UHGV virus genome: UHGV-1362026
Strand: one strand, 5' to 3'
Source of the DNA: a virus
Length of the DNA: 47,008 bases
Of this stretch, positions 1,638 through 43,122 are shown in pieces. The notes beneath the pieces are model-generated. The model made no database searches and was not told where the DNA came from. It saw only the letters and a list, made by a program, of their open reading frames with translations. A program made the translations under genes and the position numbers. Numbering within the stretch: the first letter of the stretch is position 1; each line of letters opens with the position of its first letter.

Positions 1638-1640
1638 ATA

Positions 1641-1672
1641 AAGCCGCACGAGGCGGCCTTATTACTGGTTTA
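1641..1672 (+). terminator. weak rho-independent terminator after the neck genes
   Basis: GCCGC-acgag-GCGGC hairpin followed by cttattactggttt. Confidence 0.35.
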
Positions 1673-2192
1673 AGCATTGCCAGCGTGCTTTCTTAACATC
1701 CAGCCCCGTAACCCATACATACCCCTATATATGATTGCGATAATGCTGGATGTTAAGTGTTGTGGTGACAGGAATCGAACCTGCTTCCATCGGTGCGCTG
1801 CCGATTACAGTACGCGAGGCGGTCAGTTACATGACTAGTATTTTCACTGTCGCCTATCTGCTATCTCGCCATTGAGCTTCACCACAACGGAAAGAGCACT
1901 GCTTGTGATACTCCGCGAGCGATACATACCTCTGGCTAGGAAATACATTACGCATTCACATCTTTCTCACCGCGCCGCCAAGCGCGTGCAATGCCCTTAC
2001 CTGTTATGTTCCCTGACTTATTAATCACACCTCAGGGAAGCAGTGCGCCGAATTTGCTTACAAGGAGTCGGAATACCTTACTGACTTACAGGCTATTACG
2101 CCGCAATCAGAACAACATCATCGTTTTCATTTATCTTTGTGGTAAGTTTATAAAAAGTCAGCAAAGTCTCTCACGAAAACTATCTGAAATAC

Positions 2193-2236
2193 AATCTACA
2201 CCACAAAATAATCACTGTCAACACCTGTGATATAAT
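2193..2236. promoter_or_regulatory. divergent promoter module, copy 1
   Basis: Minus strand: TTGACA (rc of 2216-2221), 17-nt spacer, TAGATT (rc of 2193-2198), pointing left. Plus strand: extended -10 TGaTATAAT (2228-2236) about 36 nt before the ATG at 2273. A near-identical module recurs at 3587-3635. Confidence 0.55.
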
Positions 2237-2272
2237 CATCGCGTTAGCAGCTAACACAATTCGGAGATCGAA

Positions 2273-2989
2273 ATGGCTATTTGTGCAAATGATAAAGGCG
2301 TTCTTGTCGGTCGCATGACCCGCCTGTTCCTTGCTGAAGGGTGCGGTGACGCAGTTCCGTCAGCAGAAGACTGGAAATATTTAGGCTCAACCACCAGTAA
2401 AGGCGTGGACTACTCGCCGCAGACTACCACCTCGGAGGCAGACACCACTGGCGGCTTCGTTTCCACTCTCGTTACCAGTTCTGATATGACCATCAGCGCA
2501 GAGGTTGAAATCCGCAAGAATGACCCGAGCGATGAATTTGGCTTCCATCGTCTGGTTGAGATTTACGCCACTGAACTGAAGGCGCGTCGCCAGCCTTCCT
2601 TGTGGGTGCGTCAGGTGACTGGTGCAACTATCGTTACCGCGTACTGCAACATCACCAGCATCAGCTACGAAGGCGGCACGAATGACATCGTTACTGGTAG
2701 CCTTGAGTTCAAGGTTTACGATTCTGACAGTGTCACCGTTGAAAGCCTTGAGCCTCTGGCATTCACTACAGACTTGCCATCAACTGGCACTGCTGGCAGC
2801 CCGTTAACTGTTGCTGTTGAAGGTGGCGTCGCTCCTTACACTTATGTATGGCGCAAAGATGGCGCGGTAGTTAGTGGTGAATCCGGTGCAACACTGTCAA
2901 GCCCTACCGCTGGTGTGTATACCGTCACGGTAACTGATTCGTCTACCGACCCGGAAATTATCATCAGCACGGCTTGCACCGTATCCTGA
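2273..2989 (+). CDS. major tail protein with C-terminal Ig-like (Big_2-type) domain
   Basis: 238 aa; C-terminal LPSTGTAGSPLTVAVEGGVAPYTYVWRKDGA is typical of Ig-like domains on lambda gpV-type tail tube proteins; lies between neck and chaperone/TMP genes; own promoter and strong terminator. Confidence 0.75.
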   Translation: MAICANDKGVLVGRMTRLFLAEGCGDAVPSAEDWKYLGSTTSKGVDYSPQTTTSEADTTGGFVSTLVTSSDMTISAEVEIRKNDPSDEFGFHRLVEIYATELKARRQPSLWVRQVTGATIVTAYCNITSISYEGGTNDIVTGSLEFKVYDSDSVTVESLEPLAFTTDLPSTGTAGSPLTVAVEGGVAPYTYVWRKDGAVVSGESGATLSSPTAGVYTVTVTDSSTDPEIIISTACTVS

Positions 2990-2992
2990 TAA

Positions 2993-3024
2993 AGAAAAAG
3001 CCCCGAAAGGGGCTTTGTTTTATT
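2993..3024. terminator. bidirectional rho-independent terminator
   Basis: aaagaaaaaGCCCCgaaaGGGGCtttgttttatt, with A-run upstream and T-run downstream. Confidence 0.8.
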
Positions 3025-3220
3025 CTTGTGGCGGTTCTGGTGGATTGGCCCAGTGGGTAGCTGGAATGCCGTGACAGCGGTCTAATTCACCAACAAAAAT
3101 CTTACTGCCAATGTTGTCGATAACTTTACATACCGCAGTTCTAACGACACCACGAAATGCTGTGATAACCATCTCGCCTTCTTCAGGCATCCTATCACTA
3201 CACTTAATCCACTGGCTCAT
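3020..3220 (-). CDS. DUF551-like small protein (antisense moron inside the tail module)
   Basis: 66 aa; MSQWIKCSDRMPEEGE...ATHWANPPEPP matches the DUF551 pattern (WISVxDRLPE ... THWMPLPEPP); AAGGTGA RBS. Confidence 0.55.
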   Translation of the reverse strand: MSQWIKCSDRMPEEGEMVITAFRGVVRTAVCKVIDNIGSKIFVGELDRCHGIPATHWANPPEPPQE

Positions 3221-3356
3221 ATCACCTTATCCTCATCAAAAATCACACCAATCACACGAAGCAGGTCTTTTGCCATACGCTCTGCTTCTTCGTAGTCGTA
3301 ACCTGCATCGACATACAAATCTATGTAGAAAATCAGGTCAGCTTTTGTTTGTTCGT

Positions 3357-3551
3357 TCATTTCTTGTCGCCACTTTTAACCAATGCCCAGACAAGTGCTG
3401 CAACCCACCCAATAAAACTCCATCCGACAAGAATATTCAGCACACAGATTGCTGTCGTGTTTGTGTGCTTTCTTTGCAAAGCCACAAATGATGGAAGAAG
3501 ATAAGCAAATATCACCAATCCGGCGAAAAACAACAAAATAACAACATCCAT
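3357..3551 (-). CDS. small two-TM membrane protein, superinfection-immunity (Imm)-like
   Basis: 64 aa, two hydrophobic helices, LVGWSFIGWVAALVWAL motif recalling the Imm_superinfect family; GAGGTGA RBS; own TTGACA-17-TAGATT promoter. Confidence 0.5.
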   Translation of the reverse strand: MDVVILLFFAGLVIFAYLLPSFVALQRKHTNTTAICVLNILVGWSFIGWVAALVWALVKSGDKK

Positions 3552-3586
3552 AACTCACCTCATTAATATCTCGTTTCGATGACTTG

Positions 3587-3635
3587 AATCTACATCACCA
3601 CTTCGCAGGTGTCAACACCACTGAGATGATATAAT
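3587..3635. promoter_or_regulatory. divergent promoter module, copy 2
   Basis: Minus strand: TTGACA (rc 3610-3615), 17 nt, TAGATT (rc 3587-3592), driving the Imm-like gene. Plus strand: extended -10 TGaTATAAT (3627-3635) before the chaperone/TMP genes. Shares AATCTACA(T)CACCAC, TGTCAACACC and GATATAATCA blocks with copy 1. Confidence 0.55.
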
Positions 3636-3663
3636 CAACATCAGTCAAATTCAGGATGCAAAC

Positions 3664-4371
3664 ATGAGCAGTCGCACGCCACTAACAGAAATCGGAGAGA
3701 TGCGCATCTCTCTTTCCGACAGGAGTTTTTTCTTTAAGCCATCATTCCGCGCAATGAATGAAATCGGCACACCAAAAGAAATCGTCGAGGTGTATGCCAG
3801 ACTCAATGGCATTGATTATGTTGCGCCGTTGCAGCACGTCGAATGCCTGCCATTTGGCGCGCAGATGCAGGTTATGAAAACCATCAGCAAACCTGTTTAT
3901 GGTCGCCACGTACTGAGCGCAGCCTATATCGTCATGCAGTCATGCTGTGAGGATGATATTTCTGTGCTGATTGGCGGATGGAAGCCAACACCGCGTGGTG
4001 TGCGATACGTACCTGGCATTATGCCAGTGAGCGACATTATTATTATTGCTCGCAATCTGATGCAGCACGGCATCATTGGCAAGTCGCCACTCAAAGTACC
4101 TGAGCGTCTGGAAGAGCAAGGCAAGAAAACCACAAACGAATTTCATGCGTCGCAATACATCATCTCAGCACGCACGCACTTCGATATGACGCGCGATGAG
4201 GCAGAAAACCTGTCCATGACAGAGTTTCAGATGATGATTAAGAATAAATATCCAGAGCCGAAAGGGTTAACGAAAGAAGAGCGCGCGGCAGAGTACGATC
4301 AGGCTAAAGCAGACCGTGAGCGCATGAAGGCACTGGCTGAACGCAAAGCGAAAAAAGCGAGGAATACATAA
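3664..4371 (+). CDS. putative tail assembly chaperone (between major tail protein and tape measure)
   Basis: 235-aa ORF immediately upstream of the TMP with a TAATG overlap; position equivalent to lambda G/GT; no convincing -1 slippery extension found. Confidence 0.5.
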   Translation: MSSRTPLTEIGEMRISLSDRSFFFKPSFRAMNEIGTPKEIVEVYARLNGIDYVAPLQHVECLPFGAQMQVMKTISKPVYGRHVLSAAYIVMQSCCEDDISVLIGGWKPTPRGVRYVPGIMPVSDIIIIARNLMQHGIIGKSPLKVPERLEEQGKKTTNEFHASQYIISARTHFDMTRDEAENLSMTEFQMMIKNKYPEPKGLTKEERAAEYDQAKADRERMKALAERKAKKARNT

Positions 4372-6710
4372 TGGCTGAAGAAGTCGGCGGAATTGTCTAT
4401 GAAGTTGGGATGGATGTTAAAGGCCTGAAAGCTGGCGCGACAACAGCCGGTAAGACTTTAGATGACCTTGAATCATCACTAAACAAGACTACCGGAGAAC
4501 TCAACAAGCTGGACAAAGGCGCGCGCAACGCTGGCAGCGGAATGAAGAATGCTGGCGGCGCAGCTTCAGGGCTTAAAACCAGCATGTCGATGTTGGCTGG
4601 CGCAATATCCGTATCACTGATTATCGAATGGGGAAAGCGATTCCTTGAGGTTGCTGATAACATGACGCAGCTTCAGGCAAGGATTGCCCGCCTGTCAACT
4701 GACGCGAAAACCGCGAATGAAACATTCAGTTCACTGGCAAATATCGCCTCAACCACTGGCGCAAGCCTGAGTGATACCACGAGGCTATGGGAAACATTGA
4801 CGTCATCACTGAAAGAGGCTGGCGCGACAAATGCGCAGGTTCTTAACCTTACCGATACCCTGCAAAAAATAGGTCGAATTGGCGGATCATCAACCGAAGA
4901 AATGGCGAATGCATTACGTCAGTTCGGTCAGTCAATAGCATCTGGCACAATCCGCGCAGAAGAGTTCAACTCCATCCTTGAGCAGATGCCTGAACTTGCA
5001 CGCCAGATAGCCGCTGGTCTCGGTATTTCAATGGGTGAACTTCGCGCCAGAATGCTTGACGGAAAACTGACGGCAGAAGATGCACTGAATGCCATTCAGG
5101 ACAGGACAAGTGTGGTCAATGCTGAGTTTGCAAAACTACCGCGCTCTATATCTCAGGCGACTGGTAGTCTTGAAACATCATTTGCAAAAATGATAGCAAG
5201 CATAAACGAAGCAACCGGAGCCAGTTCCACTTTTGTTTCTGTTATTGATTCCATCACTTCAGCAATAAACAGACTTACTGGTCAATCTGTAAGTGCGGCA
5301 GAGGTTATTTCTGATTTGACGTCAACTGCAGAAATGTTCAGTCGCAGGGCGAGAACTTGGTCATGGGTTGGCGTTGACGGATGGGCGGCACAAAATCAGG
5401 CGATAGCGGCGGTAGCAAATCAGGCTGCAACTTTGGTCTCAGATATGGATGCCGTAACGAAGTCAACAGGAGAAGCAGCAGAAGCTCAGGCTCATTTGAC
5501 AGTGCCGCAAACACCACCAAAAGACGGGAAAGGAAAGGGCAAAAGCGCGGAAGAACGGCAAGCTGAGTCAGTAGCTGAAAAGCTGGAGAAATTACGCCAG
5601 CAAACCATGCTCAATGCCACATCTACCAGTGAACTATCCCGCGAACAGGCAATTCTCAACGCGCAGCAATCGCTTGGCAAAGCTGCCACTCAGGAGCAAA
5701 TAAAACTGGCTGGCGAGTACGCTGCGAAGATTTGGGACCAGAAGAATGCACTGAAGGAACAGGCGGCTGCGGAGAAAGAAAAGCAGCGCATAGAACAATC
5801 ATATCAGGGATTGCGCGCCATTGCGTCGCCAACATCTGGCATTGATAGTGAATACCAGCAACGCATGGCTGACCTTGACGCCTACGCCGCAGCATATCCG
5901 CAGAAAATTACGGAGATTGAGCAGACTCGCGCAGCAATTGAAGCGCAATACCGACAGCAGCGACTTGAAGCAATGTGGCAGGAGTGGAGTCAGCAAAGCG
6001 CAGCCACACAAGCGGCGGCGGCGGCGTTTGATGCTTTCGGGCAGACCGCTGGAAATGCGCTTACTGGTATCCTTACTGGCTCAATGTCTGTATCAGAGGC
6101 TCTGCGATCAATTGGCTCAAACATCCTGTCCAGTGTTATCAATGCGTTTGTGCAAATGGGTATAGACTGGGCCAAATCAGCTATCATGGGTGCAGCAGGA
6201 ATGACAGCAGCATCAGGCATGGCAGCGGCTCAGGCGCAAATTATTGCAGCGGCTATGGCACCAGCAGCGGCAATGACCTCACTTGCTACGGCTGGGGGCA
6301 ACGCACTGCCAGCACAGACTGGCATTGCTTCAACCGTTGGTCTTGCAAAGACACTATCCATTGCTGGCGCGCTGAAAAATGGCGGACCAGCTCAGGAAGG
6401 CTCAATGTACAGGGTGGGCGAGAATAACCTCCCTGAGATATTCCAGGCGTCAAACGGTCATCAGTACATGATACCGGGAGACAGCGGGCGCGTAATTAGC
6501 AACAAAGACCTGACAGGCGGCAGTAGTGGCGTTGTGGTTTATAATAGCGTTTACAATAATTCAAGTAATGCTAGCGCAACAAGCAGAGCCACTGATAACG
6601 GTGATGGCTCGATAACTATTGAGACATTTATATCCGATATGAATGAAGGAGGCCCAATGAGTCAATCTATCTCAAGGAACTTTAATACCAACAGGAGAGC
6701 AACCGAATAA
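4371..6710 (+). CDS. tail tape measure protein
   Basis: 779 aa, Ala/Gly/Gln-rich and helical, N-terminal region like lambda-family TMPs (...EEFNSILEQMPELARQIAAGLGIS...), C-terminal glycine-rich tract; largest gene of the tail operon. Confidence 0.85.
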   Translation: MAEEVGGIVYEVGMDVKGLKAGATTAGKTLDDLESSLNKTTGELNKLDKGARNAGSGMKNAGGAASGLKTSMSMLAGAISVSLIIEWGKRFLEVADNMTQLQARIARLSTDAKTANETFSSLANIASTTGASLSDTTRLWETLTSSLKEAGATNAQVLNLTDTLQKIGRIGGSSTEEMANALRQFGQSIASGTIRAEEFNSILEQMPELARQIAAGLGISMGELRARMLDGKLTAEDALNAIQDRTSVVNAEFAKLPRSISQATGSLETSFAKMIASINEATGASSTFVSVIDSITSAINRLTGQSVSAAEVISDLTSTAEMFSRRARTWSWVGVDGWAAQNQAIAAVANQAATLVSDMDAVTKSTGEAAEAQAHLTVPQTPPKDGKGKGKSAEERQAESVAEKLEKLRQQTMLNATSTSELSREQAILNAQQSLGKAATQEQIKLAGEYAAKIWDQKNALKEQAAAEKEKQRIEQSYQGLRAIASPTSGIDSEYQQRMADLDAYAAAYPQKITEIEQTRAAIEAQYRQQRLEAMWQEWSQQSAATQAAAAAFDAFGQTAGNALTGILTGSMSVSEALRSIGSNILSSVINAFVQMGIDWAKSAIMGAAGMTAASGMAAAQAQIIAAAMAPAAAMTSLATAGGNALPAQTGIASTVGLAKTLSIAGALKNGGPAQEGSMYRVGENNLPEIFQASNGHQYMIPGDSGRVISNKDLTGGSSGVVVYNSVYNNSSNASATSRATDNGDGSITIETFISDMNEGGPMSQSISRNFNTNRRATE

Positions 6711-7182: not shown

Positions 7183-7186
<4 letters not shown>
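6710..7186 (+). CDS. minor tail protein (lambda gpM-like)
   Basis: 158 aa; TAATG overlap with the TMP; pattern ...SLTWIFTLAEERAFIQWLRSP... resembles gpM (...VTLSVPREEATVLESFLEEHGG). Confidence 0.6.
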
Positions 7187-11184
<3,998 letters not shown>

Positions 11185-15747: not shown

Positions 15748-15776
15748 CTCACCATTTATCGTTAATTGAATCTACA

Positions 15777-21984: not shown

Positions 21985-22292
21985 GTAACGTGGGTAAAGC
22001 GTGGGGCAACCAACCTTCCCCACGAAGTTTCACTCTAAGTATATGTAATATAATATAATTATTATTATTTGGGTTAATGGGTAATATTATTATTCATATT
22101 ATAGATAGTAATTAACATAATATTAACAAATGGATTATTTGAATATATTTATAAGGGGATGGGTATGAAATCTGCCCCTTTTTACCCACGAAAAATAAAA
22201 ACATCAAAATCAATAATTTACGATAAAAAACGTGGGGCAACCAACCTTCCCCACGACCTGCCCCACGGGCAAAAATTTACCCCACGAGCACG
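21985..22292. repeat. iteron-like repeat cluster flanking an AT-rich core: candidate replication origin / divergent control region
   Basis: Identical 26-mer CGTGGGGCAACCAACCTTCCCCACGA at 22000-22025 and 22231-22256 (itself a 7-bp inverted repeat). At least 8 CGTGGG/CCCACG units and several GGGTAA/GGGTTAA units. AT-rich core (~85% AT) at 22030-22160. Confidence 0.5.
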
Positions 22293-32507: not shown

Positions 32508-32554
32508 TACTATGCACTACCACTCAATCTACGTCAACCTCATTGTGATAGAAT
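32508..32554. promoter_or_regulatory. divergent control region with an inverted pair of the 12-mer and an extended -10
   Basis: TTGATGTAGATA (32508-32519) and AATCTACGTCAA (32527-32538); TGaTAGAAT extended -10 at 32546-32554, 27 nt upstream of the ATG at 32581. Confidence 0.45.
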
Positions 32555-34027: not shown

Positions 34028-34158
34028 GCGAGAAGAGTATGACAAGATGGCTTCTGATGTGGCAAGTGGTCGCGCTGGTTATCAGCCCGCGGTGAAATGC
34101 AGGCTAAGCAAATCACCAAAGAAATGCTATGGAAAACCACCTGAATCACTGCAATAAA

Positions 34159-34180
34159 AAAGCCCCGTGATGGGGCTTTA
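34159..34180. terminator. rho-independent terminator (convergent lysis unit / leftward block)
   Basis: aaaaaAGCCCCgtgatGGGGCTtta; the U-tract is on the minus strand. Confidence 0.7.
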
Positions 34181-36240: not shown

Positions 36241-36284
36241 TTGACGAATCTACGTCACTTAGTCAATACTTATTGACGTAGATT
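36241..36284. promoter_or_regulatory. divergent control region with three copies of the 12-mer element
   Basis: TTGACG (36241-36246) followed by AATCTACGTCA (36247-36257), then TTGACGTAGATT (36273-36284); sits between leftward and rightward operons. Confidence 0.45.
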
Positions 36285-43086: not shown

Positions 43087-43088
43087 TA

Positions 43089-43122
43089 AAAGAAAAGCCC
43101 CGTAAAGGGGCTTTGGTTTACT
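43089..43122. terminator. bidirectional rho-independent terminator
   Basis: aaagaaaaGCCCCgtaaaGGGGCtttggtttact. Confidence 0.8.

Follow-up and report, generated by a model that had tools for sequence, protein, structure and literature searches.

The window analysed here is the 47,008-nucleotide viral genome UHGV-1362026, which belongs to a 45–48 kb enterobacterial siphophage of the Skatevirus/Cedarrivervirus/Akiravirus group. In its tail region, the major tail protein gene (2273–2989, plus strand; phrog_853, E = 2.7e-87) is flanked by minus-strand transcription units, and two divergent promoter junctions, hereafter copy 1 and copy 2, mark where the direction changes. Copy 1 lies immediately upstream of the major tail gene and faces, on its left, a structured noncoding RNA gene of approximately 550 nt (1640–2186, minus strand). 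Copy 2 lies between a minus-strand cassette of three small genes (3020–3551) and two plus-strand genes, encoding a DUF6246/phrog_791 protein (3664–4371) and the tape measure protein (4371–6710). The RNA contains a domain that resembles the coding piece of transfer-messenger RNA (tmRNA), and it is with the two junctions and this RNA that we are mainly concerned.

The two junctions are built from three shared blocks, found where they had first been reported: AATCTACACCAC (2193–2204) corresponds to AATCTACATCACCAC (3587–3601), the 10-mer TGTCAACACC recurs at 2216–2225 and 3610–3619, and the 10-mer GATATAATCA recurs at 2229–2238 and 3628–3637, the last carrying the second copy 2 bp past the end originally given for it (3635). 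In each copy, a leftward −35/−10 promoter overlaps the sequence upstream of an extended −10 promoter that faces right, an architecture that the original prediction had described and that both sequence and conservation bear out. The leftward promoters (2193–2221 and 3587–3615, minus strand) have a −35 TTGACA (2216–2221 and 3610–3615), a 17-bp spacer and a −10 TAGATT (2193–2198 and 3587–3592), with predicted starts at about 2186 and 3580. Both therefore have hexamers near TTGACA and TATAAT within the 16–18 bp spacing of sigma-70 promoters; they match at 10 of 12 hexamer positions and rank first and second among the sigma-70 matches of the first 9 kb. On the plus strand, both copies carry TGATATAAT, in which a TGn stands directly upstream of a near-consensus −10 (TGaTATAAT, 2228–2236 and 3627–3635), with predicted starts at about 2243 and 3642; copy 1 has no recognisable −35 in this direction and copy 2 no usable one. 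The predicted divergent starts are separated by 57 bp (copy 1) and 62 bp (copy 2). The composite AATCTA-N17-TGTCAA occurs at exactly these two sites in 47 kb, against 0.02 expected, and in 0 of 100 shuffles; the 10-mer TGTCAACACC has no significance by itself, so that the significance of the modules lies in the spaced combination. Of the 'duplicated ~50-bp module' originally proposed, the shared blocks stand and the rigid duplicate does not, the leftward −35 being separated from the rightward −10 by 9 nt in copy 1 and by 14 nt in copy 2.

Conservation was counted over 77 loci from two clades, which provided 60 distinct sequences (21 of copy 1, from 76 loci, and 39 of copy 2); the loci gathered include 33 IMG/VR loci of the window's group and 40 of a Klebsiella-phage clade with a ~55% identical major tail protein. 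The leftward −10 TAGATT is kept in 21/21 distinct sequences of copy 1 and 38/39 of copy 2 (59/60 pooled), and the −35 TTGACA in 19/21 and 39/39 (58/60 pooled). The rightward extended −10 is kept throughout, as TGATATAAT in all 21 sequences of copy 1 and as TGATATAAT or TGGTATAAT in all 39 of copy 2. Substitutions are restricted to the spacers, and this combination of fixed hexamers and drifting spacers indicates selection on the promoter elements. The gap between the leftward −35 and the rightward −10 varies, being 9 or 5 nt in copy 1 and 14 or 3 nt in copy 2, with the Klebsiella-phage clade at 3–5 bp as opposed to 9–14 bp in the window; at either size, the two polymerase footprints must overlap, a junction would hardly accommodate two polymerases together, and the divergent promoters would compete or fire at different times. 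A chance match is ruled out by the statistics and the conservation together, and on sequence grounds both modules are confirmed as real and conserved divergent promoter junctions. Back-to-back divergent promoters are familiar in bacteria, lambda P_R/P_RM being an example, and the junctions share with that type an opposite-strand pair of sigma-70-type promoters, overlapping upstream regions and the potential for mutual interference. Unlike P_R/P_RM-type pairs, they always set a −35-dependent promoter against a −35-less extended −10 promoter, have starts 57–62 bp apart and are repeated at at least four genome junctions that share a 12-mer, CAATCTACRTCA.

Two terminators complete the arrangement. 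A hairpin GCCGC-N5-GCGGC at 1643–1657 serves both strands, ending the head-tail joining operon on the plus strand and, followed by UUUAUUUAUUU, the RNA on the minus strand; because it lies upstream, the major tail gene needs a promoter of its own. The bidirectional intrinsic terminator at which the antisense genes had been predicted to end is present at 2997–3016, with an 8-bp stem containing 5 GC pairs and a T-run on either strand; it ends both the major tail unit and the antisense cassette, so transcription must restart for the genes after the major tail gene. The rightward promoter of copy 1 would thus yield a monocistronic major tail messenger RNA (mRNA) bounded by terminators, and that of copy 2 would restart transcription for the DUF6246 and tape measure genes. 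The placing of the rightward promoters, one ahead of the major tail gene and one ahead of the DUF6246 gene, agrees with the original prediction, whose name 'chaperone' for the product of 3664–4371 was positional only and is dropped. Taken this way, the junctions would split the tail region into separate transcription units, with near-consensus, −35-dependent sigma-70 promoters running leftward and −35-less extended −10 promoters running rightward.

The leftward promoter of copy 1 had been described as pointing into a region free of open reading frames (ORFs). It sits instead exactly at the 5′ edge of the conserved structured RNA gene, which extends from copy 1 to the terminator and of which it is the putative promoter. 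The gene is recognised by its fold, by covariation and by strand asymmetry: the folding energy is −187 kcal/mol for the minus strand versus −159 kcal/mol for the plus strand, and the long hairpin called module A below contains 113 G·U pairs when read on the minus strand versus 10 on the plus strand, which favours the minus strand as the RNA strand. Among relatives the promoter is fixed and the sequence diverges directly after the −10, the transcribed part being a mosaic of conserved blocks and swapped inserts. Homology to the copies in prophages and other phages starts at 2184, ~2 nt inside the predicted start. From 5′ to 3′, the RNA would comprise a tmRNA-like coding domain, a hairpin with an invariant loop, a 'socket' hairpin with a swappable insert, a cassette resembling transfer RNA (tRNA), an invariant 3′ domain and the terminator, which is the last hairpin of the minus-strand fold and has an invariant stem and a variable loop among relatives.

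The coding domain occupies the leader of the RNA. A reading frame without an in-frame start codon runs for 10 codons from 2128 to 2099 and is closed by UAA at 2098–2096, followed by UAG (frame 2096–2128, minus strand), specifying the peptide ENDDVVLIAA; its resume position, 2128, lies in the context AAAGAUAAAU followed by GAA in the window and GCA in most relatives. Its length, exactly 10 codons and a stop, is the same in 81/81 leaders, representing 22 distinct nucleotide versions; the lengths of the other two frames are not conserved in these leaders. GCA is the resume codon in 19 of the 22 versions, and the peptides encoded by relatives include ANDDVVLMAA, ANEEMYLAVA, ANDEQFLAVA, ANDDLMLMAA and ANDNTFLAVA. 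The tag of Escherichia coli tmRNA is ANDENYALAA. Third codon positions are the most variable of the frame, and the last alanine codon occurs with all four third bases. The leader as a whole is near-identical between clades whose major tail proteins are 55% identical.

The structure around this frame also follows a tmRNA plan. The stop codons lie in a hairpin (2081–2110, minus strand) analogous to tmRNA helix 5, in which the outer 4 bp are 100% paired and one pair covaries (GC 17, AU 13). Directly downstream, at 2048–2080, is a hairpin (2080–2061, loop UAUUCCGACU) with a PK2-like pseudoknot, formed by pairing of CCGA (2071–2068) with UCGG (2051–2048). Three of the five pairs of the hairpin stem covary; the pseudoknot is 100% paired over 30 sequences, two of its four pairs covary (CCGA/UCGG, CCAG/CUGG, CCAA/UUGG), and its covariation score is matched by 0 of 500 shuffles. 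For hairpin, pseudoknot and outer helix together, 99.5% of cells are paired in the 30 sequences. The Rfam models tmRNA_permuted and beta_tmRNA match this same stretch in five independent loci, below threshold, with E values from 9e-5 to 0.05; the alignments cover the resume context (CAUAAAU followed by GC), the tag and the stop codon and continue into the pseudoknot region of beta_tmRNA. Two other features considered in the leader were set aside: a long-range helix GACUUUGC/GCAAGGUC, as CAAGG covaries with CCUUG in a local hairpin and GACUUUGC is invariant, and an AUG-initiated small ORF, MQTMMLF, whose length ranges from 4 to 12 codons.

Downstream of the leader, the hairpin at 2011–2037 presents an invariant 15-nt loop, GGUGUGAUUAAUAAG, on a stem that is 79.4% paired over 6 pairs in 17 sequences, with the four inner pairs covarying (6–8 changes on each side). 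Module A, the long socket hairpin at 1883–2008, is closed by ACAUAACAGGUAAGGGCA and UGCUCUUUCCGUUGU and encloses a variable insert, which in the window is 93 nt and unique. Its basal helix is 93.6% paired over 67 distinct sequences, as opposed to 34–65% when slid, with 14 of 20 pairs compensatory and 0 of 500 shuffles equalling it; the inserts fall into at least 28 unrelated families, some of them common to both phage clades. A second socket holds the tRNA-like cassette (1760–1886), with an acceptor stem, a D-like arm and a T arm, and with 69 nt replacing the 17-nt anticodon arm. It scores 27.3 bits with the Rfam tRNA model, below the gathering threshold of 29, has no anticodon arm and is not called by ARAGORN at default settings, so it is not a tRNA by these measures; a compensatory T-stem change is seen in the prophage copy of E. 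coli 55989. The invariant 3′ domain, module C (1665–1757), is composed of a 13-bp helix with a G-rich inner hairpin (1757–1692) and GCACGCUGGCAAUGCUUAAACCAG (1691–1665); in 14 sequences it is 98.9% paired, with two compensatory pairs, and every one-sided change gives a G·U pair on the minus strand. In relatives, the left end of the gap contains 0–4 genuine minus-strand tRNA genes, co-oriented with the RNA (Met/Ile-CAU, Arg-UCU, Ser and others); ARAGORN at default settings finds none in the gap of the window.

Some smaller observations concern these modules. In PQ186186.1 (L069, 851–908), a 99%-identical relative, the 3′ half of the tRNA-like cassette bears a 58-nt 'tRNA-Ser' annotation, an artefact that could distort the number of tRNAs counted in the phage group. 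Extra module A hairpins occur directly upstream of the leader in five loci of the Klebsiella clade (L095, L097, L105, L108 and L113) and in L119 (1917–2005), with the outer helix re-matched to the local flank, CUAUC/GAUAG replacing ACAAC/GUUGU, as though the hairpin element, on insertion, paired with the site that it enters. The variable inserts do not appear to be antisense guides to the phage's own genome, which offers them no complementarity of 13 nt or more; a single 14-mer match exists, in the invariant domain, and it is same-sense. The 3′ arm of module A, UGCUCUUU, resembles rrn boxA; as the arm covaries with its partner, a sequence-specific role as boxA is doubtful.

The closest known relative of the leader is tmRNA (SsrA), and especially the coding piece of permuted, two-piece tmRNAs (RF01850 beta_tmRNA, RF04321 tmRNA_permuted). 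Both have the resume context CAUAAAU followed by GCA AAC GA..., and in both a 10-codon tag resembling ANDxxxLxAA lacks a start codon and ends at stop codons placed in the loop of a hairpin (helix 5), with a pseudoknot directly downstream. The leader differs in that no tRNA-like domain having G3:U70 and CCA was found, in that tRNA-like cassettes are optional and in a non-canonical arrangement, and in that the tag domain forms part of a larger modular RNA whose inserts can be exchanged. The element is therefore not filed as a tmRNA; judged by its sequence, it would work like, or derive from, a tmRNA coding piece. The current tmRNA database lists 79 phage tmRNAs, as well as a phage form lacking the coding sequence (DS6A) that inhibits host tmRNA (PMC11915505). 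Its pipelines depend on the tRNA-like domain and so would miss this element. We found no report of a form with the tag domain and without a canonical tRNA-like domain, and searches with conserved RNA words, family names and tag peptides returned no description of the element, their coverage being incomplete and an earlier description possible.

We assign a probability of roughly 70% to the reading that conserved divergent junctions split the tail region and that the leftward promoter of copy 1 drives a ~550-nt RNA with a tmRNA-like domain. Several observations weigh against it. All four start sites are predictions. The defining part of tmRNA, an alanine-type tRNA-like domain, was not found in the loci examined, and neither G3:U70 nor an encoded CCA is present in any of the cassettes examined, the acceptor stems UGUGGUG/CACCACA of the window and UGCGGUG/CACCGCA of Vi01 both having a Watson–Crick pair at 3:70; HK633 has no T-loop element at all. 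The tmRNA covariance models never reach into a tRNA-like domain, and their scores of 14.7–33.7 bits fall short of gathering thresholds of 47 and 84. The ARAGORN tmRNA search finds nothing bar one spurious call on an isolated unit (L030), a chimera of the module A flank and a genuine tRNA 3′ end with the tag 'not identified'. The tag of the window begins with GAA in place of GCA, a singleton variant; pairs of tag sequences differ by 910 nonsynonymous versus 285 synonymous changes; and the pattern at the last codons could come partly from the hairpin that those codons form. Other 5′ segments replace the tag-bearing leader in 12 of 30 distinct siphophage units (~40%). Of 18 distinct siphophage tag-domain units, three have a T-loop tRNA-like cassette, 13 have genuine tRNAs and four have neither. 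This poor co-occurrence with the tag domain, together with the missing G3:U70 and CCA, excludes the tRNA-like cassette as the tmRNA acceptor domain; a permuted order with an upstream acceptor piece in Vi01 was likewise rejected, the upstream element being another socket-type tRNA-like cassette and the tmRNA models stopping short of it. Retention of the locus speaks for the reading: in all of ~78 deposited genomes from a genome-reduction study of the relative seszw (PMC9825161), the antisense cassette, the major tail gene and the gap upstream of it are at 100% coverage, and a 36,991-bp seszw mutant has lost the neighbouring HNH and lipoprotein genes with cassette and gap intact; this retention may be only suggestive, the noncoding gap possibly never having been targeted.

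On function we are more tentative. The tag frame may be decoded in a trans-translation-like reaction or otherwise engage host ribosome rescue, and the variable and tRNA-like cassettes may be exchangeable accessory parts, both proposals being of low confidence. It is possible, on balance doubtful, that the element is an unrecognised, horizontally mobile tmRNA derivative: a tag-template RNA without a canonical alanine tRNA-like domain that tags proteins during infection with the help of a non-canonical partner, either a swappable cassette or one supplied in trans, or else subverts rescue. The hypervariable cassettes of such a derivative might serve in an arms race, for example as decoys for defence nucleases that target tRNAs.

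The absence of an alanine-type tRNA-like domain would also suit a leader that organises the processing or stability of a tRNA operon, with a tmRNA resemblance that is ancestral only and a tag that is never decoded. The leader usually does stand upstream of tRNAs or tRNA-like elements, and its long hairpins with conserved bases could be processing stalks. We regard this as rather unlikely, as a fixed length of 10 codons plus stop and four-fold variation at the last alanine codon are hard to explain without decoding, and the leader persists without any tRNAs in the window and in 4 of the 18 units. Much less plausible is a decaying tRNA island whose structured segments are hitch-hiking remnants, with the leftward promoter left over from a tRNA-bearing state. 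The window does lack the tRNAs carried by its relatives, its tRNA-like cassette falls just under the tRNA threshold and the content of the region is highly mosaic; yet compensatory changes keep helices that are not tRNA-like, loops and pseudoknot are conserved across unrelated phage families, the frame is intact in every leader, conservation is higher in the leader than in the major tail gene beside it, and minimised genomes still contain the locus. Nor does a role as DNA fit well, be it as an origin, a packaging site or single-strand initiation hairpins, with leftward copy 1 as an orphan duplicate. A large noncoding region rich in inverted repeats might invite that view, but the G·U strand asymmetry, the strong promoter at one end and terminator at the other, the co-oriented tRNA genes inside the unit in relatives and the recurrence of the element in the lambdoid late-operon leader and in unrelated phages that replicate and package their DNA by other systems make it highly improbable.

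The remaining rival concerns the junctions themselves, whose shared blocks might be mainly operators of a phage DNA-binding regulator, with CAATCTACRTCA (TGAYGTAGATTG on the transcribed strand) as the conserved sequence and the −10 match secondary. To call the junctions 'duplicated', as was originally done, understates the case, as both copies belong to a family of 10 CAATCTACRTCA sites (with at most one mismatch; 0.49 expected in the window), four of which are bidirectional junctions. The sites, at 2192, 3586, 11187, 15768, 15778, 22328(−), 32525, 36246, 36274(−) and 46163, are often paired, directly at 15768/15778 (10 bp apart) and inverted at 36246/36274; site 11187, with one mismatch, lies within a different rightward promoter, and the others lie upstream of start codons. 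Those at 2192, 3586, 32525 and 46163 each face a rightward TGnTAnAAT element. This abundance and pairing favour an operator, as does the varying position of the 12-mer relative to TTGAC: the TAGATT word serves as the −10 in both copies studied here and abuts a TTGACG −35 at 32525 and 46163. Relatives, moreover, encode repressor-like, KorB/ParB-like and winged-helix proteins. Against a mainly regulatory role, the TTGACA-17/18-TAGATT geometry is exact in both copies across two clades while the intervening bases vary, the mark of selection on promoter hexamers. We consider the operator explanation unlikely as the principal one; an operator can overlap a promoter, so that the two readings are not exclusive, and CAATCTACRTCA may be a promoter signature, a regulator operator or both.

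The RNA extends well beyond the window's group. The invariant 3′ domain is found in 140 phage records, all within that group, and the combination of leader and module A in 406 phage records from unrelated families, among them Vi01-like Ackermannviridae, N4-like Schitoviridae, the lambdoid phage HK633 and phages of Cronobacter, Enterobacter and Aeromonas. Homologues are present in 307 of 5,426 complete E. coli genomes (by the leader; the best matches also contain module A and the tRNA-like cassette), and nearly all homologues in phage and E. coli genomes are unannotated. A two-anchor pattern was found in only three other species-representative genomes, all from Enterobacterales. In the prophages and HK633, the element lies between the antiterminator Q and holin genes, downstream of P_R'/t_R', and reads in the direction of late transcription. 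EC1-UPM and Vi01 have it in a gap, of 2 kb and >3 kb respectively, beside tRNA-like elements or tRNAs and again co-oriented with its neighbours. In the window phage, the RNA module is oriented against the genes around it, with a promoter and a terminator of its own. The N4-like phage EC1-UPM (L118; positions 3094, 3224, 3291 and 3444) has, after the tag domain, three T-loop elements (GGTTCGAWTCC), which ARAGORN does not accept as tRNAs, and a G-rich hairpin that resembles the invariant 3′ domain of the window; the whole architecture recurs in an unrelated podophage.

The prophage and HK633 homologues lie exactly in the lambdoid late-operon leader, the 'moron insertion site' downstream of P_R'. 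The tRNA types of the relatives (CAU, UCU) parallel those of Stx phages (ileZ-argN-argO). The small RNAs (sRNAs) known from the lambdoid P_R' site, AgvB, AsxR, Pas and StxS, are Hfq-binding RNAs of 50–75 nt (PMC4104026, PMC7547250); identity with P_R'-site sRNAs was rejected, as Rfam matches to AgvB, AsxR, Pas and STnc100 are lacking in the gaps. The element is also reminiscent of GOLLD and ROOL, which are likewise encoded by phages and prophages, often near tRNA islands, and consist of several hundred nucleotides with multiple hairpins and pseudoknots; GOLLD has a conserved and a less conserved half and sometimes embedded tRNAs (PMC12286853). The differences lie in the Enterobacterales hosts, the tmRNA-like tag frame and the cassette architecture, and the GOLLD and ROOL Rfam models give no match, the cut-off being E <= 10 for the window and E <= 0.05 for 10 loci.

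The promoter architecture is ordinary, a tidy case of a small lytic phage dividing its tail region by means of two mechanistic promoter types. The RNA matters more: it is supported by covariation, carries a tmRNA-style tag frame and has been missed by annotation pipelines that seek a tRNA-like domain, even as it is present in more than 400 phages of unrelated families and ~6% of complete E. coli genomes. Its site in E. coli is the Q–holin leader, where related prophages carry Shiga toxin genes and virulence sRNAs. If the tag is decoded, phages would provide ribosome rescue with a tagging template of their own; if not, the element would be a new kind of tmRNA mimic. P22-type hybrid phages reportedly depend on host tmRNA, an old observation on which either outcome bears, as it does on why phages carry tRNA islands. 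The element is experimentally tractable because HK633 and E. coli K-12 phages from the BASEL collection carry it.

To the right of the major tail gene, the leftward promoter of copy 2 would drive the antisense cassette, its predicted start at ~3580 lying about 29 nt ahead of the first start codon. The two genes originally named, Imm_superinfect (3357–3551, minus strand; PF14373, 65.9 bits against a gathering threshold of 27.9) and DUF551 (3020–3220; PF04448, 43.7 bits), are correctly identified; they are not a pair, as a 47-aa ORF (3217–3360; phrog_17424) lies between them, and the stop and start codons of successive genes overlap, making three translationally coupled genes. The term 'moron', too, is apt in part. 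The cassette has its own promoter (3587–3615, minus strand) and terminator (2997–3016) and stands inside the tail operon, between the major tail gene and the genes of the tape measure region; its gene content differs among relatives; and the PHROGs category of Imm is 'moron, auxiliary metabolic gene and host takeover'. The dispensability and sporadic presence implied by the term are uncertain: the cassette is never lost in the ~78 wild-type and genome-reduced seszw genomes, and the junction with its promoter belongs to the fixed, conserved architecture of the tail region, unlike a sporadic insertion. Although content varies among relatives, some cassette is always present, and relatives exchange the first gene at a conserved 5′ untranslated region. 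In phage BS5 (L004, ~3990–4090), and also in L005 and L016, there is a third copy of the divergent module (TTCAATCTACATCAG...CCCTGTCAATGATATAAT), which in BS5 flanks an extra leftward gene annotated 'ABC transporter permease' and suggests that cargo was inserted by junction duplication. From this third module and the first-gene swaps, the junctions behave as fixed boundaries for cargo exchange.

A perfect palindrome, GTTAGCAGCTAAC (2243–2255, plus strand), stands at the 5′ end predicted for the major tail mRNA and could be a 5′ hairpin or a dimer operator. It is invariant among close relatives and becomes GTTTAGCTAAAC in Klebsiella phage ZCKP2, with the symmetry kept. The palindrome is similar to a KorB-type operator half-site, and a KorB/ParB-like protein is among those encoded by relatives; a KorB-type operator network was rejected, since the palindrome occurs only once in the window. 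In the more distant Enterobacter phage BHUENT3 (L071, 2296–2363), the region upstream of the major tail gene homologue contains a match to the int-alpA RNA (RF02996; 38.3 bits versus a gathering threshold of 35.8).

Elsewhere in the window, three related terminator hairpins of the form AAAAGCCCC-N4-GGGGCTTT are found at 2991–3017, 34153–34179 and 43088–43114, and the phage appears to reuse one bidirectional terminator design. A 204-aa minus-strand ORF (7183–7797) with its own promoter-like site (7830–7802) lies amid the plus-strand tail genes; relatives have HNH homing endonuclease genes elsewhere in this region. Two 30-nt direct repeats, AAAGCGTGGGGCAACCAACCTTCCCCACGA, are 97% identical and 231 bp apart (21996–22025 and 22227–22256); each contains a GC-rich hairpin, and they lie near the strand switch at ~22.3 kb.

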